From contig CM082592.2 in the NCBI GenBank assembly GCA_040954595.2, positions 9,721,677 to 9,785,676 on the forward strand: DNA of 64,000 nt, written 5' to 3'. This DNA comes from Balanoglossus misakiensis (Eukaryota; Animalia; Hemichordata). A model generated the notes under the pieces. That model did not search any database. It had not been told where the DNA came from and saw nothing but the letters and a program-made list of their open reading frames with translations. Shown here one piece after another: positions 11,313-64,000 of this stretch; the stretch's first letter is position 1, and every line of letters starts with the position of its first letter. Both the position numbers and the translations under genes were made by a program.

Positions 11313-11689
11313 CCGTCATCAATTACCCTTAAGGGAGTTCACTTACATCATTTTCGTCTTTTAGTTTTCTCTGTCCCCACCACACTGGATTTACATCAAT
11401 TATTACCACCAGTAAACTTGCTTCTTCCTCTGTTAAAAGATGCATGAAATAACAGTGACATTGACATTATATCGCATACATTAGCATGGAGACACCGCCA
11501 TGGCCTATGGGTAGCGTCATATCAGCGGTGTTTCCATGGTTACTGTATGACGAAGTAAACTGAATCACGCTTATCCGCAGCACACACTATCTTACATATA
11601 AAAACAAAACACGGAAGGACTGAAGAGCAATCTGTCGTGCTTTTACAAACAGAGATGAAACGCACGCTTTTCTACTTACCAGCTGCCAT
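8970..11689 (-). CDS. GTF2H3: General transcription factor IIH subunit 3 (p34/Tfb4), multi-exon
   Basis: Exons read [60 protein letters not shown]...[25 protein letters not shown] (zinc finger), and [23 protein letters not shown]. Confidence 0.96.
10447..10566 (-). other. U12-type (minor spliceosome) GT-AG intron in GTF2H3
   Basis: Donor GTATCCTTC; branch TTTCTTTAAC 8 nt upstream of the 3' splice junction (…CTATGTTAG|); no polypyrimidine tract in between. Removal joins ALC-Y-IHR. Confidence 0.88.
11265..11312. repeat. (TCA)16 microsatellite in a GTF2H3 intron
   Basis: Directly visible trinucleotide run. Confidence 0.95.
11475..11549. mobile_element. Small palindromic element (Tc1/mariner-type MITE-like) in GTF2H3 intron 1
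   Basis: Arms CATACATTAGCATGGAGACACCGC / GCGGTGTTTCCATGGTTACTGTATG form a ~24-bp stem with one mismatch and one bulge. On the minus strand it reads TA|CAGT...AATG|TA, i.e. TA-flanked. Confidence 0.5.
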
Positions 11690-11842: not shown

Positions 11843-14363
11843 ATGGAAAAAGAAGGTACGTTGTTCAAATAACTTTCGCAGGATGAAGGTAAATAGTAAG
11901 AAACGTTTATCTAAAACGTGTGAAACTATGGGCCATGTGCATTTTCATAGATTTCATGTGAGATTGCGCTGAGCAGCCTGGTATCTGTGTACGTGAGTGG
12001 ATGTCACTGGACTGTGAAATGAAGCAGACGTGTCAATTTTGGATATGTGTTTTATGTTTGATGGCCATCAAGATATTTTCTATGTTGTTTCAGACGTCGT
12101 AGCATTATTATTAAACGTCTTTCTCTCTTATTTCTTTGTTCTTTTCCCACGACAGAAGTCGTAGGTTATTTCATGCAACGCATGGAGGAAGATCCAGACA
12201 TGTCATCAGCTGTTGCGGCCATACACACATTGATCAATTTCATGAAAGTGAATACAGGTAATAATTCTTACAAAAGGAAATCATCAAATGCACAAAGAAT
12301 GTGGCTGAATGATATAAAGAAAAAAGAGGACCAAACAACTGATTGATCGAGATGAAGATTCTCACTTTACAATACAAATAAATTATGAAAACGGCACTAG
12401 TACATTTTATAATATTTATTTGCAGCTGAGACGTTATCTGGACTGAGGGCACAACTGAAAGACTGCATTGACTGGTTGACACACACGGATAGCATGGTGA
12501 CATCGATATCATCAGGATGTGAACTTTTTCTCCGATTCATCACATTAGCTTCATTGGAACATTCAGTGAGTGTCTGCCTGAAGAATAAACATTGCAGCAT
12601 CTGTCTGGACAAGTCTAGTCACATTGGTGACAGTTTTATGACAACATGAACAGTCATGGGAAGAGCAATAATAGCTTGTGCATTCCATGTAATTTGATTG
12701 GCTGACAAACATCACATGACATATGTGTGACGTTTAATGCTATTGGTCAAGAATTTGACAGCACAGGTGAAAGAATCCTTTAAGAAAAAATATCTTACAG
12801 CTTTACTGGAGTTGTTGTATTTTCTAATCTTCTATCCAGAATTTTCAAGAGTGCAAGAAGATCCTGATAGAAAGAGGAGAACTTTTTCTGAGCAAAGTTG
12901 CAAAAGCGAGACAAAAGATTGCCAGGCTGGGAAATCCATTTATTCAAGATGGTTGTGTAAGTATCCACTGAGTTCAAACCTAAAAGTGTCTTGATGCATT
13001 TTAAAATCAACCATATGCTATCTAATACCAGGTCTTTCATTTTATTCACAGACGATTTTAACTCATTCTTTTTCAAGAGTTGTATTGACATTATTGGAGG
13101 AAGCTGCTGCTTCAAAGAAAAGATTCAATGTTTACGTCACAGAGTCTTGTCCGGATAAATCAGGGTAGGTTTTATCAGCATATTGTGCATTGTCACAGAA
13201 TTGTCCAGACAAAATTAAGGATGCATTGCCAATATTTTTGTCTAGGAGAGTCAGGGTAATTTGTAACAGTTTTGCCAAAGTCACAGACAGATCATGGTAG
13301 GTGTCACTTGTTGTATTGTGGAGATAAAATTAATGCTCATCATTTATATCGACAGACTCATCATGGCCAACAAGCTCAGAGAATCAGGCATTCCTGTAAC
13401 AGTAATTCTTGATGCAGCAGCTGGGTAGGTGGTACTTTGACCTTTGACCCATGTCAGCCAGGAGCATTCTGTTCTTGATCATGTGATATTGCTCAAGTAA
13501 TGTTTATCTTGGATATTACCTGTGGTTTTGGTGACTTGGGATTTGTGAACTTGTATACGTCTGGTTTTCATACAAGTGTACATCAGTCATAAACAGTTTA
13601 TCATGTATGTCTTCTATTGTAGCTATGTGATGGAGAAAGTCGACATGGTAATTGTCGGTGCTGAAGGTGTTGTAGAGAGTGGAGGAATTATTAATAAGGC
13701 AAGTCTATGATGTTCGTTTCAGACCAGTTTTGTCATTTCTTTCGGGGCTATCTGCATCATTTGTATTCAAACCAAGTTCAGTGTGACCTTTCTAAAAGTA
13801 GCACGGTGACTACATACTCGCAAAGTTTCATCACAAATTCAATTTGACATATTTTAGCTGGTACTGGAAGTGTTAACAGGTACTGAAGTACTTTCCTTGA
13901 ACACAAAATCATCAGTTGATGTCTTACCTGTTCTGCAATTTCATTCCAGATTGGCACTTACCAATTAGGTGTGTGCACAAAGGCAGCCAATAAACCTCTG
14001 TATGTGGTATCAGAAAGTTTTAAATTTGTCAGATATTATCCGTTAAACCAGGAAGATGTCCCAAACGAGTTTAGGGTGAGTGGCAAAAAAAATTCCATTA
14101 ACATCCCATATATAAGACTGTGTAAATTGCATTTTGCTACTGCTAATACTGAGTGTTGGTTCTTCAGATTAAATTTTAATATGTTGCTATTAATTACATT
14201 TTTACAGTATCGTGCATCAACACTGAGGGATATTCCAGATCTGAAAGATGAACATCCATTGACTGACTACACACCACCAGCATTCATCACCCTCATCTTC
14301 ACTGATCTGGGAGTTCTCACGCCGACTGCCATCAGCGATGAACTAATCAAGCTGTATCTTTGA
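11843..14363 (+). CDS. EIF2B1: Translation initiation factor eIF2B subunit alpha, multi-exon
   Basis: Exons read [81 protein letters not shown], and [32 protein letters not shown]. Confidence 0.97.
13699..13949 (+). other. Non-canonical GC-AG intron in EIF2B1
   Basis: Donor AAG|GCAAGT and acceptor TTCCAG|ATT restore the conserved GGIINK-IGTY motif in phase 0. Confidence 0.85.
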
Positions 14364-14814
14364 TGTACGCCCAAAAAAATAACTGATCAGATGCAGGAAT
14401 ATTGGGTCCACAGAGCTGTGGAGGTTTCTCAAGTGGATCAGGACTGAAGCTTTCTGAGTGGAGGAGTCAGTGCGTTTTGTCTGCCTCAGAAGACCCCATG
14501 AGAACTATATTTCAGCTCTTTATGTCGAGTTGAAAAAATTGACATGTTTGGACTCCCAGCATAAATGTTGACACCAGTGACTATTGAGTTCTTATCCCAA
14601 AAGTCTCCATTCTGGCATAAACAAACAAATCATTACCGCCACACCTTTGCATACTTGAGAACTAGGCTATTTATTGAAAGTATAAATTTACAACGAAAAA
14701 ATGGTGTCCATGATTCTAACATCGTTCTGATTCTGACACGTAACAGAGTCTGCTGTAAACATTTCCTCTCGTTGAGATCCAGCTGTTGGTTACATGAACC
14801 AAGGTGTCTGCACA

Positions 14815-15960
14815 TTATTGCCAGTTGATTTTCAGATTCCTTGGCAAGTCCTGCTGGATAAGTTCATCAAATGCACTTGTGTCTTTCACTTCAGTCTCAT
14901 AAAAGTTCACAACATCATTTATTGTTTTGAGTTCATTCAGCTGGTAGCTTGTCGGGCAATGCTTGAATACTTCCATGCACTGTGCGAGAACCTGAAGAAA
15001 AAAACACATCAAATATACATATACATGACCTATGTTTGCATGGTTTTATTCAATTCTTTATAAAAAAAATTCAGATGCTCTATGCTCAATATGTAATCAG
15101 ACCCCATGTATGCATTAGTAAATAAAGTACATGAAGTATGGCTTTTAATTTTGAAAACGAAAAATTGCAGAAATTACCTTGTACTTCAGAGTCGGATCAG
15201 TAAGTGCAACGTTTCTCCAATCAGCAGTATCTGGATGGTGAGACTTGGTGATCATTTCTAGTTGTGCCACTGTGTCAGCTGTAGGTTTGTAAGCTCTCTT
15301 TCTGCAGCGTGGTCTGGGAAAGCAGTAGGACAGAAAAATGTCAATAAATACATCATGAAACTGACAGTATGTGATATGAACAAACCATACCATGGGATGC
15401 ATGTCATTAGGAAGTTGAACTGGTATTAAAATATATCAAAATGCTGTACACAAACCCTTTACCTGACTATAACATAAGGTTTCTCCTGCACGCCTGGGAT
15501 AGCCATATACTTGGCTTCAACAACATCTCCCTCTACATCATCCAGATCATCACTTGCTGGTTGACTCCCATACAGGATTCTTTTCAGCCAGGTCCTATCT
15601 TGGTGGCTAATGTCATCTGCATAATGCCTTGACTGGATCTTCGAAATTGCAATCTGTTTGAATACCATGAAAATACATGTTGATTGTGCCGTAATAAACT
15701 GAAGAAATGTAATGCATTGCATGGGCTGTGGGTTGTTAGTGTGTGTTACACACGTGTGTGGTAAACACCGTCCAATGTTACCGACCCTACCACCATGCAT
15801 GCTGGAGCACATAAACCGAAAGATTGTTGCTAATCACAAAACTTACCACAGAATTGAAATATATTTTGTTTCTTATCAATAAAAAGTTCCTGACGATATG
15901 CGTTTTCCCAGAAAACAGAGTTTGTGCCCCTTTGGCACAGAAACACAAGGACGTCGCCAT
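14815..15960 (-). CDS. MRPL50: Mitochondrial ribosomal protein mL50, four exons
   Basis: N-terminal presequence-like MATSLCFCAKG; conserved domain AYKPTADTVAQLE...WRNVALTDPTLKYKVLAQCMEVFKHCPTSYQLNELKTINDVVNFYETEVKDTSAFDELIQQDLPRNLKINWQ* resembles the mL50 C-terminus. Confidence 0.85.
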
Positions 15961-16363
15961 TGCTATCCCAGGGATCAATATTGTGTCAAAGGTTACATGA
16001 ATGTTCTATTTACGTGGGAAGGGGAGATTCCGCTTACAAGTCTTGGAATTCAGCAAATATTGCATCTGCCATTGAAAACTACATACACTATTTGTCTCTC
16101 CGCATTCAGTAGCGAAATAAAATTCATTTAATAAATATATACTAGCTATCGTCATCTGAAACGCTGTTACAAAATCCTATGTAATAAACCTGTCTGGAGA
16201 AATGAAATATTCTAAGCGTCCAACGCCCAAGAAGAAGCGATGTCGGTGGGTTTTATCGGGCTATCTCTCGTCGTTTTTAACAATTTTGTCAAATCTGAAG
16301 TAGGAAGAAAGGGGCCAAGTGTTCATCTTTGAACTTACTGAAGTTGGTTTACACTGAAACGAG
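15961..16363. promoter_or_regulatory. Probable divergent promoter for MRPL50/DGCR8, including a non-coding first exon of DGCR8
   Basis: Head-to-head arrangement; CpG-rich patch 16200-16640; donor-like GAG|GTATTT at ~16363; acceptor-like TTTTACTATTAAG| at 16763. Confidence 0.5.
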
Positions 16364-16828
16364 GTATTTCATTTGTCTTGTGCTTTATTGACCTACGTGT
16401 CGGCTGCTCTACTGCCAGGGTACCGGTACGTAGCCTTCAAATCATCATAGCGACGTCGCGACGCACTGTGTCTGCGATTGTTTTATTAAACCAAACGATC
16501 AGATATCAGACGCCCAGGTTTAAGTAACTGTTAGAAACCACGATCAGCTGATTTTGCAGAAAATATATAGATTTAATGCGTCTCTGATCGAAAAAATATC
16601 CAATTTAATCAAAATGCGATGGCGCCCTCTACCGTCCTTGTCAATGATCAAAGTTCACCCGTTTTGTTCATATATATTGCTTTAAAAGGACTCTATCAAA
16701 TTGGTGCCGTACTTTGTTTTTTTGTAATGATCGGACAAATTAATTTATAATTTTACTATTAAGGACATGTTGGAATGTGAAATGAGTTGTTGATTTTTCT
16801 TTTCCCCTTGGAGTATCTTTGGCCTGAA

Positions 16829-16931
16829 GAGTGAGCGACTGTTTGTACTGTTGTTTCCAATAGTGAAGACAGAGTTTTATGTGCACTGTCTGTCTTTGTT
16901 AATGAAAAGCACAGTACATGCGGCCGTACTC
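16829..16931 (+). ncRNA. pri-miRNA-like hairpin in the predicted DGCR8 5' UTR
   Basis: TGTACTGT (16844-51) pairs with ACAGTACA (16911-18). TAGTGAAGACAGA (16861-73) pairs with TCTGTCTTTGTTA (16889-901), 13 bp including G:U. 15-nt loop contains UGUG; basal GAGTG/TACTC; CCAC (CNNC) at 16931-34. Confidence 0.75.
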
Positions 16932-17329
16932 CACGCCTGTCAAGATTCAAGGTCAACGGAAACTAGAAATTTTGTCTTTTGATTTGTGTGTGTGTGAGTT
17001 GCTCTTGTATGTTAGTGCCTGAACGTCCTATGTGTTTCATGAGAGTCTAACTATATACCGTAGATGCCTTGTTCTTACCAAATAATGGGTGTGACTTTTT
17101 GCTCTATCACAGATAATCACTTGTCACCTTAAAACACAGACATACAGTATTGAAGCCGTTTGATTCACCACCAGTGAGCCTGTACATAGAATCCATCCAT
17201 GTTATTAGGCCTATCCTGCATTTCCACACTAAAGACACTGTGTGTGTAGGTAACTTTTAGTATGTTCTGAATGTACCTAGTAAATTGTACACAACATACA
17301 GGGGAGACAGACTTGGCCACGGCTCGTGG

Positions 17330-20300
17330 ATGGATGACAGTTCTGACTTGTTCACTGTGGTGCCCGGTTCGTACCCGGCACTGGACAGTGGGGGGTCACC
17401 TCCCTCGCTACCACAGCATCTGTCCAGTGAGACAGGAATGGACGACAGCTCTGGTAGTGATGGGAGCCAGCCAAGTGTAAACGCTGATGCGGTACGTCCG
17501 TACGAGGAGAACCAAGGCACGGCCAACAGCACTCGCGTGTCAGATATCGCAGAGGTCGAGAACGTCCACCAGGGTATCGCAGCCGAATTCGAAGAACTAT
17601 CCAAGGCTGTTCAGTCCTTAGAAGATTTGGGAGATATTGGAAGTCCTCGGGGCTCAAATAACGGTGTAATGTCTGATGAAGGTGCACAAGACCTGTCAGG
17701 TGCAGATTATATTTTAGGAACAGGGATATTCCAGTGTGAGACGGAAGAAATGATGCAGCTGGTTGGGAATGGTGAAGCGCAGGATTTTTCTGTCGATGCA
17801 TCGCTTACTGTAGATGGGAAGCAACTGTTCAAATCATCACAAGAGCCTGGGGATGACGGAAGTGGGAATTTCAGCGATGATCTGGCGTCCTGTGAAGAGA
17901 AGAAAGATGGGTTCAGTGCTGATCATTTTACTGATGATATGATGGATTTTCTGGATGAAGGGAGTCACCAAGACTCAAACGCAGGTTTTCTGTCACCCGA
18001 GTTCACAACAGAGCACTCATCCAGCGTCACTCAATCTCCTGACAATTCCACAAATGATGGCAGCCGTCCTGATCAGATCGGCCAGCCGGCAGCGACAGAA
18101 GCAAAGGAACATACATCGGATACTTCCTCTCAGGGTGGAATTGAAAACGCTGCTAATGATGGCGGCAGTGGTGAATGCTCGGAGAATCCCTCGAAAAAAT
18201 CAAAGTTGGACTCCGGGGGTTTTGATATGGACTTATCATGTTTCAAAATAAGTTTTAATGCAGGATTAAGCAAGCTGGGCTGCCGTGAAGTGGTATTCAC
18301 AGGTGATGGAGACCCTGCAGCTGAGGAAAGAAGTGCGCTCGACACAAGCAGAGAAGAAGGTGAACCCAAAGAGCAAGATCAACAAAATGATGTAGAACAG
18401 GATAACGAACTTGAACATGAGGATGGTGAGCTTGAATACAACATTGTGGACGACCTTGAAGACGACGCAGCAGACAAAGATGAAATGGCTGATGATGGAG
18501 AGTATGTCGCCGGGGCAACGGATGAGGAGGATGAAGGTGCAGAGAGCCTGACTGAAGAGATTGATGCCATGCTGGATGAAGGGGTATCGGATTACAAGGC
18601 AAGACGGAAGAGAAAACGCGACGAATCAGAAGGCGATGATCAGAGAGATCCAGGTGCTCCAGAAGGATTGATAGGAATCACCAACAAAAAGATGTTGAAA
18701 AGTAAGTCAAATTGTGACTGGTAAGTTTCGGCAAGGAGTTTAAATGATTCTGTAGGGTTTGGTATCTGTACACTAATCCTGTCTGTATTTTTAGAAAAAG
18801 AATAAAGTGCCCAGTTTCCCAATAGGTACATGTAGACTTGTAAATATGAGTGGAAATGCGGAAACAATAGACAGTATATCAGGTCAGCACTGATATTGTC
18901 ATATCATTATAAAGGTCTGATGTGGTGTTGATTACAGGTAGGGGTCGTGCATCCTTAGAGCCTCTGCCAGAAGGCTGGGTAGAGATCGCCCACAGAACAG
19001 GAATGCCACTGTATCTGCACAGAGCTTCTAGAGTGGTGACGTGGGCAAGACCTTACTTCCTGGGAGTCGGCAGTGCTAGGGTAAGTTACCGGTAACATCA
19101 CACACACGCACACACTGGATAAGTGGACTCCCACAGCAATACAATCAATATGGTATTAATGGTTTTCATTACTTCTCCGTGTTCAGAAACATAAAGTCCC
19201 ACTTCGGAGTGTACCATGCTTGCACTATAAAAAGGAATTAGAAAGAGAGAAAACAGGAGTGGTATCTCAAGACAGTGCAGTGGATGGAGGAACTGTAGAG
19301 GACAATGCAGGTGTGTGTATGTATCATTTAAAGGATAGTGACCACTATCCTTTACACTATCCTACATTTTGTCCTGGCCAATGAATGTCATGCATTGTTT
19401 TATGTTTGTTTGTATGTGTTTGTGTGTCTTAAAGAAGATGGTAATATTTACACATATCACGTTTGTAATTATTTCTTGTTTTGAACTTTGAATTTACTTG
19501 TACTGTTTTAAGGTGAAGCCACAAACTCAAATAATGCAAATGAGAATTCCAGTCAAACTGGTGAGGGCGCTGAAACTCAGGCCGGGGAGGAGAAGAAAGA
19601 TGAGATGAAGTCTAAAATTGAAGTTTGCAAAGACGAATCAGTCAGTAAGTCAGTTTACACCATATTTCATTATTAACATCAGTAATCTGTCTCATCGGGA
19701 TAAAATTGACAATCGGTATTTTTCTCTTTTCTATCAGGTCCTGAGGAGTTTGAATCATACCTTGAATCATTATTTGAATTTGAAAATATTTCCATCAAGA
19801 GATTTAAGTAAGTAAGATTTCACACCCTCATTTCCTGCACTTTTTATTATTGGAAAGCACTGTTGTTTGTTAGGGTACCCTTAAAGCAAAGCCAGTTTTG
19901 CTATCATGGATGACACCTGATATTTCTGAACATATAATATGGAATGTTCTGTCATTTCTGTTTTCAGATCTTGGGCTGCTAGAAGAGCACACAACAGAGA
20001 CATGAGACGGAAACAGGCAACAGAGAGACCCACCTTTGTGAGTGATTACTCAAATTGTCAGCTTTTTGGCTAGGTCGCCACAGAGGAATGAAATATGACT
20101 GTCAGTGGGAATTTCAGAAATGACCTCTTTATAGATTGGGACAGAATTTATACACATCTGTAATTATTCATACCGGGTAATATTTTTATCAAGGTATAGC
20201 TCTAATTTGACTTTGTTGTTCTTACAGCCTGGTAGTTCAAATGTCGTCACGTTGAAATTACCCGACAACGGACCAACGCACAAAGGCAAAAAAGGTAATG

Positions 20301-22262
20301 CATTGTAAAAAGGGCTTTGGGATTCTGTTACTTGATGTCTTAGCTTGCGTGTTCCAAAGCCGATGTTTCCCTGTCTTGCTTCTTTCAGAGATCACACTGA
20401 ACCTCCACGGCAAGACCAATGTCTGCTTACTCCATGAATATGCACAACGTGTTCTCCGAGCTCATCCAAAGTATATCTTCAATGAAAATGGTGAGTAGAT
20501 CCACTTCATATCAGCATGTCATTTTCATGATTTTAGACAATATGTCTAGCATCCTTTAGTCACGTTCAAGGATGATATTTTTCGAGTATTTTTACCAATT
20601 TTCACGCAACTTTCACATTGCAGAAAATGCCAATGCACCATTCCAGGCGGTTATCAAAATCAATGATGTGAAATACGGATCAGGGTTTGCTGCGAATAAA
20701 AAACTTGCCAAAGAAGAAGCAGGTAAGTTCCTACATTACAATGGTACATGTTTTGTAGACATGTACATTTGATAACATTCATTCTCATATTATTCTAATT
20801 TTGAAATGAACTAACTGGAAATTGCTTTTCGTTTCAGCAAAGAGTACCCTGGAAATCTTGGTTCCTGAACTGGTAGCCAAGAAACAGGAGCAGAAATCAG
20901 AACCAAATGATCTCGAGGTATGTCTTCATGATATTCACTGATAATAAAAATTCAGTCTGCATGTCTGGCCCTATGTTTATGCTACAAATTATACGAGCCT
21001 AGACATTTCCCCATTATAAGGACAGTCTATCAAAATCCCTTTTCTCTGTTTTCAGTACTTTGATCACATTCCAATAGAAGATTCCAGATTCTACGATCTA
21101 TGTCACAAAGCAGGGCAACTCACGCCATGGCAGATATTACAAGAATGTTTAAAAAGGTGAGTGTTCTCCAGTAGACTAGAATAAGACACCAAAGATATAC
21201 GGCAGCTCTGTTGATTAAATTCAAATAATACTTGTGCTCAGTATTAAGGCAGACAATTGATATTTCCACTGTACATTTGAGATTTCAATCAGTCCTGGTT
21301 GACAATCTTCAACTAACTGTTTAATTTTTTACAGGAACCATGGGATGGGTGATACTAATGTGAACTTTGATGTCAAAGTCGGCAAAAATCAAAAGAGTGA
21401 ATACACGATGACCTGCGGGAAGCATGTGGCAAAGGTTGGTTGAAACTGTGACATTTCTGCAGTCAATCTAAAATTCAAGAGCAAAGAATGAATTAGAATG
21501 AAACACTTGTAATGTGCTTGAGTCGATATGAAGTTAAATATCCAAATCCACACACACACAGACACTCACAATCTGTGGCCTTGTTCCTGATAACATGATG
21601 TCACCATTACAGGGTTTTTGCAAGAACAAGATTGTTGGTAAGCAGCTGGCAGCACAAACTATTTTACAGGTAATTGCATTTCCTTTACTGAGTTTTCTGT
21701 CAAACATGATAGTTATTTCTCAAGCTGGGTGCATGATTAGTTTTTGAACTATTGCCCGACCAGGCAATAGGTGAATGTGCTGAACGACAACATAATGTAT
21801 TGAGTCACTTGCGCTTGTCTGCAGGCTGTATGTCTTGCTGCAAAAATAAAAGTAGATTGCATAAACGCTCTCCTCTTCCCATTTTCCAGAAACTGCACCC
21901 GCAAATCAGGAACTGGGGCTCGCTGATCCGGATGTACGGGAAGGGAACGTGCGGCATCGAGAAAGTGAAAGAGCAGGAAGAACAGAGTGTGATGGAACTG
22001 CAGCAGCACGCCAAGAAGAACCGACCCAACATGCACATCTTGGAAAGACTGAAGAAAGAGATGAGGAAACTTCACAGTCAGGAGCAAGTAGGTGGAACCA
22101 ATCCCGCTGCTTCATGCATTATTTGATTCTGCAGTGAAAAGACCACACATCTACATTGGCTTTTTTCTTCTCTTTCCACAGGAAAAGAAAAAGAAAGTAA
22201 AGAAATTCCATCCGGGCAATATTGAGAAGCCATCCACCGCATTGTGTCCTCTTGACGTCTGA
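17330..22262 (+). CDS. DGCR8: Microprocessor subunit DGCR8/Pasha, multi-exon
   Basis: Long acidic N-terminal exon; WW/Rhed region [58 protein letters not shown] (heme-ligand Cys codon 19217-19219); two dsRBDs ([16 protein letters not shown]...[17 protein letters not shown]; [18 protein letters not shown]...[14 protein letters not shown]); C-terminal tail WGSLIRMYG...[16 protein letters not shown]; ends LCPLDV*. Start codon inferred. Confidence 0.96.
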
Positions 22263-24381
22263 AACCCCTCGCAGTCTGTCCACACCTTATCCAATGAATG
22301 GGATCGCCCATCAACAATGGAATCAGGGCCTACCCATTCACAATTCAGGGGTGGTGCACTTCTCTGGTATGCTGGATTTGCACAACTTAATGTAGAGTAC
22401 AATAATAATTCAGATTTACAGCTGTCAAAATTGTACAAAAATTCTGCAATATATTTCTTGTACTATGTTTAACGACCGTCCATCCAATATACAAGCCATC
22501 ATCTCATGAACTATGGCATTCATATGGGCAATATGTCTTTAAAAGACTAGAGAAGTCCAAATTTTACTTACTAATGACAAATTTTACTTACCATAACGAC
22601 AAGGATGCTAACTATACAAATCATGATTAAAGAAGAGTTTCAGTTCTTTCGTTCTTTCTGATAAAAGTTTCTAATGCGCACAAGTGCTACCAACACGGGA
22701 AATAGCTTTTTAAAAAAGGGGGGTGTATGAATTTTACTTGGTCTGCAAAAAAATCTAGCTTCGTGATTTCTTCCATCTTCAACATGAAAAGACAGTTGGG
22801 TGCTCAAACCACCGAACAAGAGCGACTATACTTTATTTCGTATATATATGCAGTGCATTAGACAAAGTAGATATCAGATTGGTTTTGAATTTTGAGGTGA
22901 ACCTTGGCGTACTTGAAATTAACCTGAATACTTCATAATATAATGTGACGTCCATGTTAATGTTACCTGAACACTGGATATATCACCTGGATATTTGCAA
23001 TTGTGATAGCTAGGAATATAACACGTTCCTGAAAAATCTGAACAATTTTACAAGAATATCTGTGTTTCTTAATATTACATTTTAATGAACTGTGCAGCTA
23101 TTTATGTTACATGTTACCTGATAATCTGTTCAATGCAACACAGATTCTTGGATAAGTTATTTATCTTGGATGGCTTTTGGTGAAACGTGTGTCATTGATG
23201 ATGATGCATGTAAGAATACTTGCCTGCTGTCTGGTCTACCAGTACTGTACCGTTGTATGGTGTATGTAACCAGGACATCTACTCACTTCATGTTTACATT
23301 ATATATACTGGATGTGTGCAAGGTGTGCCTTTTGCAATGTAACATGAATGACTGAGTTTTGTGTTCTGAATACTGTACAGTGTGGCAGCAAATTTGCAAT
23401 CATTGTACACTGGATATCGAGGTGTAATGTAGCGTAATGTAACGTGTATGTCATGTGTTGTGTAATCTCCAGTACTGTGCAATGTATTTTGTTCTATTGT
23501 ATTGCATGGCTGTATTAATGGAACATTGGTATAGACTTAAATGTCCATGCAATAGTGGAAATCATAATTTTATTCAGTGGGAGAGTAAGAATTTTTTTTT
23601 AATTTTTCTGAAAATGCCATGTAGGTCAGTCACAGAATGTGTACCATGGTGCAGCTGAATTTTGATATCCGCCCCAGTTTGTGTCACTCATGAAATGAAT
23701 GACATTAGGGCAAACAAGAAAAAAATCTTAAAGATTAATCAAAAAGCAGAATTCCGTGATTGTCCTTGTGCATGAGTATTGTTAACAAATGAACTTTTAA
23801 ATTCTTGATTGTTATTATTTTATATACAGTTGTATTTGAACCTCGCTAGGGAAAACATGATGCTGCTACAAATGTACAGTTATTAACCATCAATTAAACA
23901 TCTTCTAAGAGCAAGAAGTTTATCAAATCCCAAATTGGCAAAACATGTGGCAATAAGAAATATGCAAAAACATTCTTTTAGCAGCAGCTGTCAGTATATT
24001 TAACTCGGATCATTAGACCCCTCGTTTTCCCACCTGGTCAGTTTGAAAACTTGCAATTTTGTTTGATAAATGACAGGACACGAATAATATGATGAAATTG
24101 TAACTGTTGATGAATCATGTAAAATCACAGGTCGTTTCGTTTACAATCATGTGGCAAAAATCTGTTGTTCTGTTTCACAATTATGTGCCTGAGGTTTTGT
24201 ATGAGCAGCTCTTATTATTAGTTTATCATCAGAACTTGTACAGTTTATTGTAGGTTGGAATCGCCTTTTGCTGCCTCTGACTCAATCACGGCCTTTTACA
24301 CGACATAAACTTTTCTTACTACTGCACTTGTCAGGAGCATTTCTGGAAATATTTCAGTTTGTGTTAAAACTGTGTGCGGAG

Positions 24382-27700: not shown

Positions 27701-29079
27701 TCAGCTTGACCTGCTCTCTGCCTTTTCCTCAGCTTCCACCAGCTGCTTTTTCACGTCAGCTGGAATCATCACCTCATGGAGGTTTTCCATCCCTTCTTCC
27801 GGTTCGTCAGAAATGAGCACGGAGATGAGTTTCTGACAGGATTCGGACACTTCCGGACTTGATTCTTGTTTGTCGAGTTCCCGCAGTATAATGTATGCTC
27901 TCTTGTCTTTAATAATCTTCCTTCCTTCCTTGGTTGCACATAACTGCAAAATCAAAAATCAGTTGTTCACTGTATGTTATTGCATTGAAGCATGCATATG
28001 GTAATCTGTGACAACCTGTGCACCTATCGGCAATTTCAAATGACAGGAATACAATCACCCTTAATTTACATATGCCCAAATAAGGATGTTCCCTTGTGAA
28101 TAGAGGGCGCTTTTCAATCACCTGGAAAACTGCTTCAATCAGCATCTTCCTGATGGCTGGATCCGGTTCCCTCTCCTTATCCTCCTCCAGGAATTGAAGA
28201 TCTTCTGGCATCCCATCCATTTCTTCATCTGTTAATTCTTCTGGTCCGGCAAGGGGCAGCAACAGCCTTGGTAGAATGTCAACTTGGCTGCCTAGCAACC
28301 ATAAATGGTAATCTGTTGGAGGCAAGTACAGTATACAAATGAGAGTTGTCATACACACAAGAGCTACTGGATGATTATCAGCTCATTGCGAGATCTCGTG
28401 AGACTTGTTTATTACCATAGCAATACAATATATTACCCATTTCAAAACAACAATTTTTCAGAATTCCAATGATGCCACCTCTTCTGGTGACCGAGTCTTC
28501 GTACTGTATAAAAGGCAGCAGTCTCTGTATGACGCATTTATCTTTGTCGAGGATGAATTTTCTGGCTTCAGGAAGTTGGGTCAAATTCGACAGAAATTGA
28601 GCTAAATAGTGGAGATTGTTTTTCGGGTTAAACTTATCGTTACAAAACACATCAACAAATTTTAAAAGGCCCAAGTCGCTCCTTTCAATTTCGGCTAGCA
28701 CTTTCTTACAGCAATATTCATCTCGCGTGATGTTGGAAAGTATTGCGCACACAAAATCCGCATATTTGCTATCACTTTTGAGAACATACTGAACAAAGTT
28801 CGAAACTACGTCGTAATCTTCTGTGATGATTCTGGCCATTTTAACATCAGTGGACAAGTTTACGAGTGCGAGATACGAGTCTGTGGCAACAGATTCCTGC
28901 GGATGTCGGGTTAGGGTGAAGATCGCTTCGAGGTATCGTTTGTTCGATTGGAACATGCGGATACCGTCGGGAGACCCGGTCAGCCCGAGGATGTTGTGCA
29001 GAGCGACCGATAAGATGTCCAGTCGAGTCTCTAGCGTTAAGAACTGCAACAACTCTTCCAACTGACTACTTTCCGCCAT
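27701..29079 (-). CDS. HGH1: HGH1 homolog (eEF2 chaperone, FAM203), three exons
   Basis: MAESSQLEELLQFL...ILGLTGS; LHYLAQFLSNLTQLPEARKFIL; RRGGIIGILKNCCFE; DILPRLLLPLAGPEELTDEEMDGMPEDLQFLEEDKEREPDP; LCATKEGRKIIKDKRAYIILREL. Confidence 0.93.
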
Positions 29080-29836
29080 AGTTGATTTATCGGATGAAAA
29101 ACTCAAGTTTCTCTGTTAGTAGAAAACTACTCGATCTGTCTTTTCTAAAAGCGAGGCGGACGTTTTTTGAGACACACACATTGTTCATTTTTCACATGTG
29201 GGCGCAGCCATGTTGCTTTTTGATCTTCACTGCGCCTGCGTGCATCACCGTTGATAAAATATATGATAAAAACAATGCAAAAGAGTCATCGATGAGATTC
29301 GAAATCCAAACAGTACACGGGAACGTGTACTGTAGTATTCACAGCGGCAAAAAAATCGTATTTATAGCTCAATTAAAACAGTGATAAACCCTAGAAACAT
29401 GCGCCTACAGTTTGCTATCGACTCTGTGACCCCTGACCTTTGAAAGCTTTGGCCTTTGACCCGGGGCATGAAAAGTTTTAACATTTTAAAACCTTTCGTG
29501 CTGCAGCGGCCGATATTAGACCAGATTTTGCAGAACCAACATAATACTAAACGATTTTTGAAGGTAGGACACTAAAAATGCAGTCTAAACCAAGCTTTAT
29601 GCATACAATGATTCGACTTCAGCCTCTTGCACGCACGTTTTTCGTGGCTTTTCAGGTGCACCTGTGCAAATATTGTAACCACTGTTACCATGGAAATTTC
29701 AAATACTGGTACTGTATAGCCAATTACAGATTTTAAGTGGGTGGCACACGCGAAAAAAGTGCGCCACCACATGGTCATTCAATCACTCAGACACCCCACA
29801 AACCAAAGAGTGATCATTTCTTTTACTGTCTATTAG
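29080..29836. promoter_or_regulatory. Divergent promoter region for HGH1/FN3KRP
   Basis: Head-to-head genes; NRF1-like TGCGCCTGCGTG at 29231-29242; CpG-rich; acceptor TATTAG| at 29836 precedes the FN3KRP ATG exon. Confidence 0.5.
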
Positions 29837-49935: not shown

Positions 49936-50253
49936 TGAAAAATTATAGCTCATGAAAATCATCCAAAAATGACAATTTTTCGACTTTCCGAAATTTCAAA
50001 ATTTCTTCATTTTTTGAAAAAAATCATAGGTGATAGCTATGAAAATCATCCAAAAATAACAATTTTTCGACTTTCCGAAATTTCAAAATTTCTTCATTTT
50101 TTGAAAAAAATCATAGGTGATAGCTATGAAAATCATCCAAAAATGACAATTTTTCGACTTTGCGAATTTTCAAAATTTGGTCATTTTTTGAAAAAACCAT
50201 GGGTTATAGCTCAGGAAAATGTTCAAAAATCGACGATTTTTCGACTTTGCGAA
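49936..50253 (+). repeat. Satellite edge: ~3.5 monomers in forward orientation, the outer ones diverged
   Basis: Variant units GAAAATCATCCAAAAATGACAATTTTTCGACTTTCCGAAATTTCAAAATTTCTTCATTTTTTG grade into the consensus. Confidence 0.9.
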
Positions 50254-53200
50254 CATTTTCCTGAGCTATAACCCATGGTTTTTTCAAAAAAATGACAAAA
50301 TTTTGAAAATTCGCAAAGTCGAAAAATGGTCGATTTTTCAACATTTTCCTGAGCTATAACCCATGGTTTTTTCAAAAAAATGACCAAATTTTGAAAATTC
50401 GCAAAGTCGAAAAATGGTCGATTTTTCAACATTTTCCTGAGCTATAACCCATGGTTTTTTCAAAAAATGACCAAATTTTGAAAATTCGCAAAGTCGAAAA
50501 ATGGTCGATTTTTCAACATTTTCCTGAGCTATAACCCATGGTTTTTTCAAAAAAATGACCAAATTTTGAAAATTCGCAAAGTCGAAAAATCGTCGATTTT
50601 TTAACATTTTCCTGAGCTATAACCCATGGTTTTTTCAAAAAAATGACCAAATTTTGAAAATTCGCAAAGTCGAAAAATCGTCGATTTTTCAACATTTTCC
50701 TGAGCTATAACCCATGGTTTTTTCAAAAAATGACCAAATTTTGAAAATTCGCAAAGTCGAAAAATGGTCGATTTTTCAACATTTTCCTGAGCTATAACCC
50801 ATGGTTTTTTCAAAAAATGACCAAATTTTGAAAATTCGCAAAGTCGAAAAATGGTAGATTTTTCAACATTTTCCTGAGCTATAACCCATGGTTTTTTCAA
50901 AAAATGACCAAATTTTGAAAATTCGCAAAGTCGAAAGATGGTCGATTTTTCAACATTTTCCTGAGCTATAACCCATGGATTTTTCAAAAAATGACCAAAT
51001 TTTGAAAATTCGCAAAGTCGAAAAATGGTCGATTTTTTCAACATTTTCCTGAGCTATAACCCATGGATTTTTCAAAAAAATGACCAAATTTTGAAAATTC
51101 GCAAAGTCGAAAAATGGTCGATTTTTAAACATTTTCCTGAGCTATAACCCATGGTTTTTTCAAAAAATGACCAAATTTTGAAAATTCGCAAAGTCGAAAA
51201 ATCGTCGATTTTTCAACATTTTCCTGAGCTATAACCCATGGTTTTTTCAAAAAATGACCAAATTTTGAAAATTCGCAAAGTCGAAAAATCGTCGATTTTT
51301 CAACATTTTCCTGAGCTATAACCCATGGTTTTTTCAAAAAATGACCAAATTTTGAAAATTCGCAAAGTCGAAAAATCGTCGATTTTTAAACATTTTCCTG
51401 AGCTATAACCCATGGTTTTTTCAAAAAAATGACCAAATTTTGAAAATTCGCAAAGTCGAAAAATGGTCGATTTTTAAACATTTTCCTGAGCTATAACCCA
51501 TGGTTTTTTCAAAAAATGACCAAATTTTGAAAATTCGCAAAGTCGAAAAATGGTCGATTTTTCAACATTTTCCTGAGCTATAACCCATGGTTTTTTCAAA
51601 AAATGACCAAATTTTGAAAATTCCCAAAGTCGAAAAATCGTCGATTTTTCAACATTTTCCTGAGCTATAACCCATGTTTTTTTCAAAAAATGACCAAATT
51701 TTGAAAATTCGCAAAGTCGAAAAATCGTCGATTTTTCAACATTTTCCTGAGCTATAACCCATGGTTTTTTCAAAAAATGACCAAATTTTGAAAATTCGCA
51801 AAGTCGAAAAATGGTCGATTTTTCACCATTTTCCTGAGCTATAACCCATGGTTTTTTCAAAAAATGACAAAATTTTGAAAATTCGCAAAGTCGAAAAATG
51901 GTCGATTTTTCAACATTTTCCTGAGCTATAACCCATGGTTTTTTCAAAAAATGACCAAATTTTGAAAATTCGCAAAGTCGAAAAATGGTCGATTTTTCAA
52001 CATTTTACTGAGCTATAACCCATGGTTTTTTCAAAAAATGACCAAATTTTGAAAATTCGCAAAGTCGAAAAATGGTCGATTTTTCAACATTTTCCTGACC
52101 TATAACCCATGGTTTTTTCAAAAAATGACCAAATTTTGAAAATTCGCAAAGTCGAAAAATGGTCGATTTTTCAACATTTTCCTGACCTATAACCCATGGT
52201 TTTTTCAAAAAATGACCAAATTTTGAAAATTCGCAAAGTCGAAAAATGGTTGATTTTTCAACATTTTCCTGACCTATAACCCATGGTTTTTTCAAAAAAT
52301 GACCAAATTTTGAAAATTCGCAAAGTCGAAAAATGGTCGATTTTTCAACATTTTCCTGACCTATAACCCATGGTTTTTTCAAAAAATGACCAAATTTTGA
52401 AAATTCGCAAAGTCGAAAAATCGTCGATTTTTCAACATTTTCCTGAGCTATAACCCATGGTTTTTTCCAAAAATGACCAAATTTTGAAAATTCGCAAAGT
52501 CGAAAAATCGTCGATTTTTCAACATTTTCCTGAGCTATAACCCATGGTTTTTTCAAAAAATGACCAAATTTTGAAAATTCGCAAAGTCGAAAAATCGTCG
52601 ATTTTTCAACATTTTCCTGAGCTATAACCCATGGTTTTTTCAAAAAATGACCAAATTTTGAAAATTCGCAAAGTCGAAAAATCGTCGATTTTTCAACATT
52701 TTCCTGAGCTATAACCCATGGTTTTTTCAAAAAATGACCAAATTTTGAAAATTCGCAAAGTCGAAAAATGGTCGATTTTTCAACATTTTCCTGAGCTATA
52801 ACCCATGGTTTTTTCAAAAAATGACCAAATTTTGAAAATTCGCAAAGTCGAAAAATGGTCGATTTTTCAACATTTTCCTGAGCTATAACCCATGGTTTTT
52901 TCAAAAAAATGACCAAATTTTGAAAATTCGCAAAGTCGAAAAATGGTCGATTTTTCAACATTTTCCTGAGCTATAACCCATGGTTTTTTCAAAAAATGAC
53001 CAAATTTTGAAAATTCGCAAAGTCGAAAAATGGTCGATTTTTCAACATTTTCCTGAGCTATAACCCATGGTTTTTTCAAAAAATGACCAAATTTTGAAAA
53101 TTCGCAAAGTCGAAAAATGGTCGATTTTTCAACATTTTCCTGAGCTATAACCCATGGATTTTTCAAAAAATGACCAAATTTTGAAAATTCGCAAAGTCGA

Positions 53201-54780
53201 AAAATGGTCGATTTTTCAACATTTTCCTGAGCTATAACCCATGGATTTTTCAAAAAAATGACCAAATTTTGAAAATTCGCAATGTCGAAAAATGGTCGAT
53301 TTTTCAACATTTTCCTGAGCTATAACCCATGGTTTTTTCAAAAAATGACCAAATTTTGAAAATTCGCAATGTCGAAAAATCGTCGATTTTTCAACATTTT
53401 CCTTAGCTATAACCCATGGTTTTTTCAAAAAATGACCAAATTTTGAAAATTCGCAAAGTCGAAAAATCGTCGATTTTTTAACATTTTCCTGAGCTATAAC
53501 CCATGGATTTTTCAAAAAAATGACCAAATTTTGAAAATTCGCAAAGTCGAAAAATGGTCGATTTTTCAACATTTTCCTGAGCTATAACCCATGGTTTTTT
53601 CAAAAAATGACCAAATTTTGAAAATTCGCAAAGTCGAAAAATGGTCGATTTTTCAACATTTTCCTGAGCTATAACCCATGGTTTTTTCAAAAAAATGACC
53701 AAATTTTGAAAATTCGCAAAGTCGAAAAATGGTCGATTTTTCAACATTTTCCTGAGCTATAACCCATGGTTTTTTCAAAAAATGACCAAATTTTGAAAAT
53801 TCGCAAAGTCGAAAAATCGTCGATTTTTCAACATTTTCCTGAGCTATAACCCATGGTTTTTTTCAAAAAATGACCAAATTTTGAAAATTCGCAAAGTCGA
53901 AAAATCGTCGATTTTTCAACATTTTCCTGAGCTATAACCCATGGTTTTTTCAAAAAATGACCAAATTTTGAAAATTCGCAAAGTCGAAAAATGGTCGATT
54001 TTTCAACATTTTCCTGAGCTATAACCCATGGTTTTTTCAAAAAATGACCAAATTTTGAAAATTCGCAAAGTCGAAAAATGGTCGATTTTTCAACATTTTC
54101 CTGAGCTATAACCCATGGTTTTTTCAAAAAATGACCAAATTTTGAAAATTCGCAAAGTCGAAAAATGGTCGATTTTCAACATTTTCCTGACCTATAACCC
54201 TTTGGTTTTTTCAAAAAATGACCAAATTTTGAAAATTCGCAAAGTCGAAAAATCGTCGATTTTTCAACATTTTCCTGACCTATAACCCATGGTTTTTTCA
54301 AAAAATGACCAAATTTTGAAAATTCGCAAAGTCGAAAAATCGTCGATTTTTCAACATTTTCCTGAGCTATAACCCATGGTTTTTTCAAAAAATGACCAAA
54401 TTTTGAAAATTCGCAAAGTCGAAAAATGGTCGATTTTTCAACATTTTCCTGAGCTATAACCCATGGTTTTTTAAAAAAATGACCAAATTTTGAAAATTCG
54501 CAAAGTCGAAAAATGGTCGATTTTTCAACATTTTCCTGAGCTATAACCCATGGTTTTTTCAAAAAATGACCAAATTTTGAAAATTCGCAAAGTCGAAAAA
54601 TGGTCGATTTTTCAACATTTTCCTGAGCTATAACCCATGGTTTTTTCAAAAAATGACCAAATTTTGAAAATTCGCAAAGTCGAAAAATGGTCGATTTTTC
54701 AACATTTTCCTGAGCTATAACCCATGGTTTTTTCAAAAAAATGACCAAATTTTGAAAATTCGCAAAGTCGAAAAATGGTC
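50252..54780 (-). repeat. 87-bp satellite, inverted block (~52 monomers)
   Basis: Tandem reverse complement of the monomer found in the rest of the array. Confidence 0.97.
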
Positions 54781-57700
54781 ATTTTTTTGAAAAATCCATG
54801 GGTTATAGCTCAGGAAAATGTTGAAAAATCTACCATTTTTCGACTTTGCGAATTTTCAAAATTTGGTCATTTTTTGAAAAAACCATGGGTTATAGCTCAG
54901 GAAAATGTTGAAAAATCGACCATTTTTCGACTTTGCGAATTTTCAAAATTTGGTCATTTTTTGAAAAAACCATGGGTTATAGCTCAGGAAAATGTTGAAA
55001 AATCGACCATTTTTCGACTTTGCGAATTTTCAAAATTTGGTCATTTTTTGAAAAAACCATGGGTTATAGCTCAGGAAAATGTTGAAAAATCGACCATTTT
55101 TCGACTTTGCGAATTTTCAAAATTTGGTCATTTTTTTGAAAAATCCATGGGTTATAGCTCAGGAAAATGTTGAAAAATCGACCATTTTTCGACTTTGCGA
55201 ATTTTCAAAATTTGGTCATTTTTTGAAAAATCCATGGGTTATAGCTCAGGAAAATGTTGAAAAATCGACCATTTTTCGACTTTGCGAATTTTCAAAATTT
55301 GGTCATTTTTGGAAAAAACCATGGGTTATAGCTCAGGAAAATGTTGAAAAATCGACCATTTTTCGACTTTGCGAATTTTCAAAATTTGGTCATTTTTTGA
55401 AAAAACCATGGGTTATAGCTCAGGAAAATGTTGAAAAATCGACCATTTTTCGACTTTGCGAATTTTCAAAATTTGGTCATTTTTTTGAAAAATCCATGGG
55501 TTATAGCTCAGGAAAATGTTGAAAAATCGACCATTTTTCGACTTTGCGAATTTTCAAAATTTGGTCATTTTTTGAAAAAACCATGGGTTATAGCTCAGGA
55601 AAATGTTGAAAAATCGACCATTTTTCGACTTTGCGAATTTTCAAAATTTGGTCATTTTTTGAAAAAACCATGGGTTATAGCTAAGGAAAATGTTGAAAAA
55701 TCGACCATTTTTCGACTTTGCGAATTTTCAAAATTTGGTCATTTTTTGAAAAAACCATGGGTTATAGCTAAGGAAAATGTTGAAAAATCGACCATTTTTC
55801 GACTTTGCGAATTTTCAAAATTTGGTCATTTTTTGAAAAAACCATGGGTTATAGCTCAGGAAAATGGTGAAAAATCGACCATTTTTCGACTTTGCGAATT
55901 TTCAAAATTTGGTCATTTTTTGAAAAAACCATGGGTTATAGCTCAGGAAAATGTTTAAAAATCGACGATTTTTCGACTTTGCCAATTTTCAAAATTTGGT
56001 CATTTTTTGAAAAAACCATGGGTTATAGCTCAGGAAAATGTTTAAAAATCGACCATTTTTCGACTTTGCGAATTTTCAAAATTTGGTCATTTTTTGAAAA
56101 AACCATGGGTTATAGCTCAGGAAAATGTTGAAAAATCGACCATTTTTCGACTTTGCGAATTTTCAAAATTTGGTCATTTTTTGAAAAAACCATGGGTTAT
56201 AGCTCAGGAAAATGTTGAAAAATCGACCATTTTTCGACTTTGCGAATTTTCAAAATTTGGTCATTTTTTGAAAAAACCATGGGTTATAGCTCAGGAAAAT
56301 GTTGAAAAATCGACCATTTTTCGACTTTGCGAATTTTCAAAATTTGGTCATTTTTTGAAAAAACCATGGGTTATAGCTCAGGAAAATGTTGAAAAATCGA
56401 CGATTTTTCGACTTTGCGAATTTTCAAAATTTGGTCATTTTTTGAAAAAACCATGGGTTATAGCTCAGGAAAATGTTGAAAAATCGACCATTTTTCGACT
56501 TTGCGAATTTTCAAAATTTGGTCATTTTTTGAAAAAACCATGGGTTATAGCTCAGGAAAATGTTGAAAAATCGACGATTTTTCGACTTTGCGAATTTTCA
56601 AAATTTGGTCATTTTTTTGAAAAATCCATGGGTTATAGCTCAGGAAAATGTTGAAAAATCGACCATTTTTCGACTTTGCGAATTTTCAAAATTTGGTCAT
56701 TTTTTGAAAAAACCATGGGTTATAGCTCAATAAAATGTTGAAAAATCGACCATTTTTCGACTTTGCGAATTTTCAAAATTTGGTCATTTTTTGAAAAAAC
56801 CATGGGTTATAGCTCAGGAAAATGTTGAAAAATCGACCATTTTTCGACTTTGCGAATTTTCAAAATTTGGTCATTTTTTGAAAAAACCATGGGTTATAGC
56901 TCAGGAAAATGTTGAAAAATCGACCATTTTTCGACTTTGCGAATTTTCAAAATTTGGTCATTTTTTTGAAAAATCCATGGGTTATAGCTCAGGAAAATGT
57001 TGAAAAATCGACCATTTTTCGACTTTGCGAATTTTCAAAATTTGGTCATTTTTTGAAAAAACCATGGGTTATAGCTCAGGAAAATGTTGAAAAATCGACC
57101 ATTTTTCGACTTTGCGAATTTTCAAAATTTGGTCATTTTTTTGAAAAATCCATGGGTTATAGCTCAGGAAAATGTTGAAAAATCGACCATTTTTGACTTT
57201 GCGAATTTTCAAAATTTGGTCATTTTTTGAAAAAACCATGGGTTATAGCTCAGGAAAATGTTGAAAAATCGACCATTTTTCGACTTTGCGAATTTTCAAA
57301 ATTTGGTCATTTTTTGAAAAAACCATGGGTTATAGCTCAGGAAAATGTTGAAAAATCGGCCATTTTTCGACTTTGCGAATTTTCAAAATTTGGTCATTTT
57401 TTGAAAAATCCATGGGTTATAGCTCAGGAAAATGTTGAAAAATCGACCATTTTTCGACTTTGCGAATTTTCAAAATTTGGTCATTTTTTGAAAAAACCAT
57501 GGGTTATAGCTCAGGAAAATGTTGAAAAATCGACCATTTTTCGACTTTGCGAATTTTCAAAATTTGGTCATTTTTTGAAAAAACCATGGGTTATAGCTCA
57601 GGAAAATGTTGAAAAATCGACCATTTTTCGACTTTGCGAATTTTCAAAATTTGGTCATTTTTTGAAAAAACCATGGGTTATAGCTCAGGAAAATGTTGAA

Positions 57701-63700: not shown

Positions 63701-64000
63701 AGGAAAATGTTGAAAAATCGACCATTTTTCGACTTTGCGAATTTTCAAAATTTGGTCATTTTTTTGAAAAATCCATGGGTTATAGCTCAGGAAAATGTTG
63801 AAAAATCGACCATTTTTCGACTTTGCGAATTTTCAAAATTTGGTCATTTTTTGAAAAAACCATGGGTTATAGCTCAGGAAAATGTTGAAAAATCGACCAT
63901 TTTTCGACTTTGCGAATTTTCAAAATTTGGTCATTTTTTGAAAAAACCATGGGTTATAGCTCAGGAAAATGTTGAAAAATCGACCATTTTTCGACTTTGC
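54776..64000 (+). repeat. 87-bp satellite, forward block (~106 monomers; runs off the window end)
   Basis: Monomer GGTTATAGCTCAGGAAAATGTTGAAAAATCGACCATTTTTCGACTTTGCGAATTTTCAAAATTTGGTCATTTTTTGAAAAAACCATG; highly homogeneous, mainly homopolymer-length and single-base variants. Confidence 0.98.

Follow-up and report, generated by a model that had tools for sequence, protein, structure and literature searches.

In mammals, Drosha cleaves both hairpins of the DGCR8 transcript, thereby lowering DGCR8 (10.1101/2025.09.09.675111, 10.1101/2025.09.23.678008, PMC2736397). The question raised by the DGCR8 locus of the acorn worm Balanoglossus misakiensis is whether a hairpin found ahead of its start codon is an element of this lineage or the counterpart of a vertebrate one. 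The stretch of DNA analysed here (the window) is 64,000 nt long, and its initial annotation had proposed a Microprocessor-substrate-like hairpin ahead of DGCR8, with a sequence that was not recognised, as a candidate novel miRNA. The circuit itself is already known; what is new is the presence of counterparts of the DGCR8 feedback hairpins in a phylum in which the catalogues checked score them as absent.

The identity of the gene, proposed from the letters alone, was confirmed by a 15-exon model encoding 931 residues (17330..22264, + strand), including the WW/Rhed region and the dsRBDs. The model was built from canonical splice sites, and among four possible combinations of boundaries the one agreeing with relatives was chosen. 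Its product is 72% identical to Ptychodera flava DGCR8 over the full length, 67-68% to the Glandiceps and Saccoglossus proteins (in the aligned part) and 47% to that of a bird, values which suggest an enteropneust with Ptychodera among its near relatives. One exon reaches 92% identity with P. flava, the WW/Rhed exon matches PDB 3le4 (E 1e-18), and for the N-terminal 100 residues nothing was found among PDB sequences.

The hairpin ahead of this gene (hairpin A, 16835..16927, + strand) consists of 33 pairs closed by a 15-nt terminal loop (16874..16888), and lies in sense orientation 402 nt from the DGCR8 ATG, the distance having been given earlier as about 400 nt. The span originally delimited (16829..16934, + strand) corresponds to hairpin A plus a 4-bp basal extension and a CCAC. 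The long imperfect stem, its 8-bp helix (16844-16851 with 16911-16918), its 13-bp helix (16861-16873 with 16889-16901, including three G-U pairs), the loop, the UGUG, the CCAC and the arm sequences were all found where they had been described. The folding check that had been suggested also gave a favorable result: for the span 16829-16934 the folding energy was -36.5 kcal/mol (z -4.21) and for the wider span 16800-16960 the z was -3.07, none of 200 shuffles being as good in either case, while the 93-nt core alone gives z -3.77, matched by 1 of 200. Folding of hairpin A within two contexts of greater length gave probabilities of 0.87-0.99 for five of the six pairs sampled, its 3-bp helix being mobile (probability 0.4). 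In a scan of the + strand (3321 tiles over 1-49.9 kb, ranked by z), the requirement for at least 22 unbranched pairs and -27 kcal/mol or better was passed by 16 distinct candidates, among which hairpin A ranked second; ranking by pair count did not discriminate, leaving hairpin A outside the top 30 of 312 hairpins. The loop carries at its end a short tandem duplication of 4 nt.

The nature of hairpin A was examined by comparison with Rfam. The mir-3618 family (RF04152) matches 16835-16927 over the whole model (1-88 of 88) with 47.9 bits, E 4.1e-9 and a single non-standard pair marked, so that the notion of a novel miRNA has to be given up: the hairpin matches mir-3618 itself. This score lies below the gathering cut-off of 99, which makes hairpin A a diverged homolog and not a formal member of the family, and at gathering thresholds Rfam gave no match anywhere in the window. 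When 4227 Rfam families were compared with positions 1-49.9 kb, the only matches with E < 0.5 were mir-3618 (one site, on both strands) and mir-1306, each covering its full model and placed around the DGCR8 ATG in the vertebrate order.

A comparator for both matches was obtained from a motif scan of metagenome contigs, which yielded 41 loci, with Rfam applied to 40 of them. One of the 41 proved to be a DGCR8 locus (L021), namely, a vertebrate exon 2 with both hairpins, scoring 110 bits for mir-3618 (L021:2981-3068) and 106 bits for mir-1306. All comparisons below refer to this single vertebrate locus, the acorn worm being the only invertebrate whose DNA is compared with it. In both, the acceptor ahead of the WW exon occupies an identical codon position (18938 in the window and L021:5967). 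Each arm of hairpin A is identical to its counterpart at 25 of 39 positions without gaps (50 of 78 arm bases), and 31 of the 33 pairs are in register: 20 are the same, seven are changed on both sides, four on one side, and the remaining two are unpaired in the vertebrate. The compensatory substitutions for which a search in relatives had been recommended are thus found against the vertebrate sequence, although three of the seven double changes are located at helix ends. The 4-bp basal extension is not paired in L021. In a MAFFT alignment of the two hairpins (31 pairs), 96.8% of cells pair, in comparison with 34-52% when the sequences are slid, and five double changes are retained; a value of 96.8% was reached by 15 of 500 shuffles. 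Being derived from two sequences, these pairing statistics are supportive without amounting to a test of covariation. Hairpin A obtained an alignment score of 61.5, which exceeded those of all 5000 dinucleotide shuffles (maximum 41.5) and all 5000 structure-preserving shuffles (maximum 40), and it was the best of 3194 window tiles. Using blastn, hairpin A and L021 were matched at E 0.91 only, a weakness that can explain why earlier surveys missed the hairpin.

Two blocks are invariant between the acorn worm and the vertebrate: 9 nt in the 5' arm (16854..16862, + strand), two of them unpaired, and 11 nt in the 3' arm (16899..16909, + strand), three of them unpaired. Both hairpins also share the DGCR8 host, the sense orientation, the position ahead of the ATG and the pattern of bulges. 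They differ in that the acorn worm hairpin is 5 nt longer, the near-apex 2x2 internal loop of the vertebrate hairpin is closed into the 13-bp helix, and the distance to the ATG is 402 nt instead of 127. The predicted seeds are also unlike the vertebrate ones: assuming a cut at 16850/16914, two of seven positions differ for 5p and three of seven for 3p.

A second hairpin, missed in the initial annotation, corresponds to the mir-1306 match. Hairpin B (17398..17466, + strand) has 23 pairs and a 12-nt loop and lies within the coding sequence, in frame in the N-terminal region, 68 nt past the A of the ATG. The match to RF01014 has 38 bits and E 3.5e-6, below the gathering cut-off of 70, which again defines a diverged homolog and not a formal member. 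Alone, it folds with z -4.36 (0 of 200 shuffles as good), and it is less well folded within a context of 126 nt (z -2.11, 4 of 200), ranking 10th of the 16 candidates of the + strand scan. Its alignment score (63.5) was reached by no shuffle, whether dinucleotide or structure-preserving (5000 of each), and was the best of the 3194 tiles. Like vertebrate mir-1306 (L021:3297-3368; MIR-1306 in MirGeneDB), hairpin B is a short stem at an in-frame site of the N-terminal coding sequence that specifies a related peptide, and the upper helices are nearly identical. However, only 15 of its 23 pairs are in register with L021, with one double change, because the lower stem is much better paired in the acorn worm, in another register; the loop is one codon shorter, and hairpins A and B are 470 nt apart, in comparison with 228 in L021. 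With the finding of hairpin B, the vertebrate layout of two hairpins around the ATG is complete in the acorn worm.

The coding position of hairpin B allows its conservation to be followed at the protein level. Of ten amino acids shared with L021, seven are encoded by an identical codon (P 0.005, with 2.75 expected if codons were used uniformly), as opposed to five of 14 in the WW exon, used as a control (P 0.41); the excess of the former over the latter is not significant (Fisher p 0.11). The peptide retains 22 of 24 residues in P. flava, in comparison with 12 and 7 in the neighboring windows, and is the best-kept stretch of the early N-terminus. It was found in 106 of 120 proteins, among them all three named enteropneusts; the 14 misses include the four amphioxus proteins as annotated, and the peptide was likewise absent from four of four echinoderm proteins as annotated. 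A scan of prokaryote genomes for the hairpin B motif found none.

Hairpin A occupies the orthologous position (in sense, 5' of the DGCR8 start codon and followed by a mir-1306 counterpart). The two hairpins are almost certainly homologous to those of vertebrates. That the resemblance arose by chance or convergence, or that hairpin A should be assigned to a different family (the ambulacrarian mir-2007, for instance), is extremely improbable. Such a view could appeal to the Rfam scores, which are under the gathering cut-offs, and to a weak mir-2007 match in a narrow scan (24.9 bits, E 0.0025), but two independent matches agree with the gene, order and position expected, none of 5000 structure-preserving shuffles reaches either score, and the mir-2007 match falls 23 bits short of that of mir-3618, derives from the loop and has gapped arms, for which reasons this family was rejected. 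The loop of hairpin A (16874-16888) does resemble the mir-2007 consensus loop, which may reflect a shared loop signal or chance.

The homology of both hairpins bears on the dates that catalogues assign to them. In the available part of PMC4390885, mir-3618 and mir-1306 are both dated to Gnathostomata, with zeros for Saccoglossus, two echinoderms including the sea urchin, amphioxus and lamprey. The accessible portion of MirGeneDB 3.0 (PMC11701709), which samples P. flava and Saccoglossus, places MIR-1306 in Gnathostomata and contains no MIR-3618, and mir-1306 is also dated to Gnathostomata in PMC11848845, as far as the text available goes. Among the matches listed, no report of either hairpin in a hemichordate was found in the open-access articles and preprint texts searched, and the available parts of PMC8728216, PMC12465437, PMC2884542, PMC7996739, PMC12553114, PMC4729200 and PMC5650284 contain nothing on hemichordate DGCR8 hairpins. 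Hairpin A or B could be present in MirGeneDB under another name, among its 13 families restricted to enteropneusts or its five Pfl entries. Since both hairpins are matched in a hemichordate, the pair must date from no later than the split of hemichordates and chordates, and both elements move back to the deuterostome ancestor, well before the jawed-vertebrate date of the catalogues. That ancestor is more than 500 million years old. The blastn result further shows that DGCR8 hairpins can escape ordinary BLAST searches.

How hairpin A might be processed was considered from its stem geometry and the register of L021. Both point to a cut between 16849/16915 and 16851/16913, which would release a pre-miRNA-like product of 63-67 nt (16849..16915, + strand), in keeping with the MirGeneDB size criterion (near 60 nt, with paired arms of about 22 nt; these norms and the CmR definition are given in PMC11701709). 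Human pre-mir-3618 runs as a band of about 58 nt (10.1101/2025.09.09.675111), and the register yielding this vertebrate product corresponds to 16851/16913 in the window. The cut at about 16850/16914 originally put forward is therefore within the predicted range, with an uncertainty of some 2 nt, and does not coincide with the register that matches the 58-nt product. The UGUG and the CNNC invoked in support of that cut are indeed present, but carry little weight. The canonical position of the apical UGU is 21-27, where hairpin A has none; its UGUG (16880-16883) sits in the middle of the loop, at a distance of 31 nt from the cut that was put forward. A CNNC is found at +16 to +18 for all six cut registers tried (the CCAC is at 16931-16934), and therefore does not fix the cut; moreover, L021 does not retain it in the homologous register. 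A basal UG is absent from hairpin A, as is the CmR/mGHG mismatch at the homologous register 16851/16913 (CmR is partial at 16849), where L021 shows a CmR-like arrangement. For canonical microRNAs, each of these processing motifs is optional.

This scarcity of classical motifs at the likely cut could favor a regulation of DGCR8 by the hairpins that does not involve cleavage, for example by means of DGCR8 binding, nuclear retention or scanning slowed together with upstream open reading frames, and the invariant unpaired bases of the mid-stem would suggest a sequence-specific recognition of this kind. However, the compensatory changes keep stem length and lower-stem pairing, which are the features read by Drosha, and the vertebrate mir-3618 also lacks the basal UG and the CNNC at the homologous register and is nevertheless cut, according to the available reports. 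Regulation without cleavage is very improbable.

By analogy with mammals, it is fairly likely that both hairpins let Drosha-DGCR8 cut the DGCR8 transcript as a negative feedback, and that this switch was inherited from the hemichordate-chordate ancestor; the initial annotation was right in proposing negative feedback as the role of hairpin A, as far as the likely function is concerned. In mammals, mir-3618 acts as the main substrate and as a helper, with mir-1306 as a suboptimal recipient, and deletion of mir-3618 in mammalian cells raises DGCR8 (10.1101/2025.09.09.675111, 10.1101/2025.09.23.678008). In the acorn worm, the Microprocessor would crop hairpin A as its main substrate, releasing the 63-67 nt product and separating the cap-bearing leader from the open reading frame; we propose that, for this reason, DGCR8 mRNA would fall when the Microprocessor is abundant. 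Hairpin A would additionally help hairpin B, with its short stem, to be cleaved at a distance of 470 nt downstream, and mature small RNAs from both hairpins would most likely be scarce by-products, because their predicted seeds are not those of vertebrates.

An alternative, that the hairpins were kept for the sake of mature miRNAs that function on targets elsewhere and that their location in DGCR8 is incidental, is very improbable. Both fold like pri-miRNAs, MIR-1306 is included in MirGeneDB and two annotated miRNAs are located in amphioxus DGCR8, which would agree with such a view, but the comparison with L021 shows differing predicted seeds together with invariant mid-stem bases, mammals contain negligible amounts of mature miR-3618 (10.1101/2025.09.09.675111), and mir-3618 is absent from MirGeneDB in the part available. 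Stem geometry that is conserved while seeds drift is better explained if the hairpins serve as substrates than if they serve for targeting, and the fixed stem bases mark candidates that could explain how pre-mir-3618 is cropped without being diced.

The feedback role of hairpin A also presumes that it is retained in the mRNA. While hairpin B is in a coding exon, the exonic status of hairpin A depends on which candidate acceptor is used. Acceptors were scored with a weight matrix derived from the 14 introns of the gene itself, whose true sites score between -3.9 and 15.2 bits. The hairpin lies ahead of the ATG as in vertebrates, in line with the layout suggested previously, but the acceptor at 16763 on which that layout relied scores only 1.6 bits. 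Were the acceptors downstream of the hairpin used, at 17112 (4.7 bits) or 17234 (2.7 bits), hairpin A would be intronic. It might then be homologous and yet reside in an intron or in a mostly skipped leader, cropped co-transcriptionally with the mRNA left intact, its sole role being to help load the Microprocessor onto hairpin B. These acceptors, combined with candidate donors upstream at 16246, 16364, 16426 and 16524, make this conceivable, as do the considerable length of the sequence between 16764 and the start codon (566 nt), its 14 upstream ATGs and the published helper-recipient behavior of the vertebrate pair (10.1101/2025.09.09.675111, 10.1101/2025.09.23.678008). We nonetheless consider it unlikely, given that better acceptors exist upstream of hairpin A (16813, 7.2 bits, and 16559, 6.7 bits; another candidate is at 16509) and that the vertebrate exon is continuous and itself carries nine upstream ATGs in 275 nt.

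Whether the switch is even older than the hemichordate-chordate split was approached through the peptide encoded by hairpin B. In priapulid, chelicerate, nemertean and mollusc DGCR8 proteins, a two-armed motif with a spacer of variable length can be recognized (Q/H-M/T-S-S/N, 5-8 residues, L-D-F) which, on a bilaterian reading, would be the stem kept as a protein motif. It was detected by eye and by pattern, and hints, from peptide sequences, that hairpin B may be older than that split. The pattern Q/R-M/T-S-S/N, spacer, L/M-D-F/V was matched by 9 of 95 DGCR8 N-termini, two of them of vertebrate type (shuffles: mean 0.009, maximum 1), and by 20 of 113 in a second set (shuffles: maximum 1), in which no named insect or crustacean matched. 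A looser pattern was found in 25 of 35 protostomes, none of four echinoderms and none of three amphioxus, in a set of 42 hand-picked named proteins from which insects and crustaceans were left out, and only the two vertebrate proteins scored well with a deuterostome peptide profile. Placed in the vertebrate register, the motif gives a mean of 4.09 expected Watson-Crick pairs out of eight, in contrast to 1.3-2.2 when slid, a value reached by about 1% of random peptide pairs. There is some circularity in this test, given that the residues involved in pairing are dictated by the pattern. The protostome motif might, alternatively, be simply a protein motif.

Two further systems bear on this point. 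Among the entries listed in PMC11848845, bbe-mir-4877 and bbe-mir-4879 lie in sense in the 5' part of amphioxus DGCR8, and in the portion available they are filed as Cephalochordata-specific. As in the acorn worm, there are two miRNA hairpins, here annotated ones, in sense in the 5' part of the gene, but they are about 1.2 kb apart, the comparison being one of description and position; neither name appeared in narrow Rfam scans. Although both are within DGCR8, the amphioxus proteins lack the hairpin B peptide, and both hairpins may be untranslated there. In Drosophila, the pasha 5' UTR contains two hairpins (dme_422 and dme_474) that are cleaved by Drosha as a feedback (10.1101/125997). Two hairpins of Pasha/DGCR8 are common to both animals, cleavage and feedback being predicted in the acorn worm; by description, both fly hairpins are in the 5' UTR, unlike the acorn worm pair, which flanks the ATG. 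Fly and mammalian DGCR8 hairpins have been reported to have their layout in common, but not their sequence (10.1101/2025.09.09.675111). It is quite possible, although somewhat more open to doubt than to belief, that hairpin B dates from the last common bilaterian ancestor, that DGCR8 autoregulation is one inherited switch in which the fly hairpins are replacements, and that amphioxus mir-4877 and mir-4879 are the same pair under other names. With the protostome motif, homology versus convergence of the fly and mammalian feedback becomes a testable matter.

Several features were observed elsewhere in the window. The strongest + strand hairpin, at 11467-11558 (z -7.4 in the scan and -5.75 in a separate fold), is miRNA-sized and gave no Rfam match at E <= 1; located near a Tfb4/GTF2H3-like gene, it is a candidate for an unannotated miRNA. 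On the - strand, a long GC-rich hairpin at 2130-2216 (z -5.43) could be a small inverted-repeat element. The region 49945-64000 is occupied by an 87-bp tandem satellite of about 160 copies, 98% alike and grouped into three rows; near 54780 there is a break at which the GC skew changes its sign. A divergent gene (about 14700-15960, - strand), whose upstream region is common with that of DGCR8, shows a weak match to Ribosomal_L50 (MRPL50) below the Pfam cut-off. An exon of the eIF2B subunit family is found at 13920-14363 (+ strand), and an HGH1-type (DUF383) gene at 27909-29115 (- strand).
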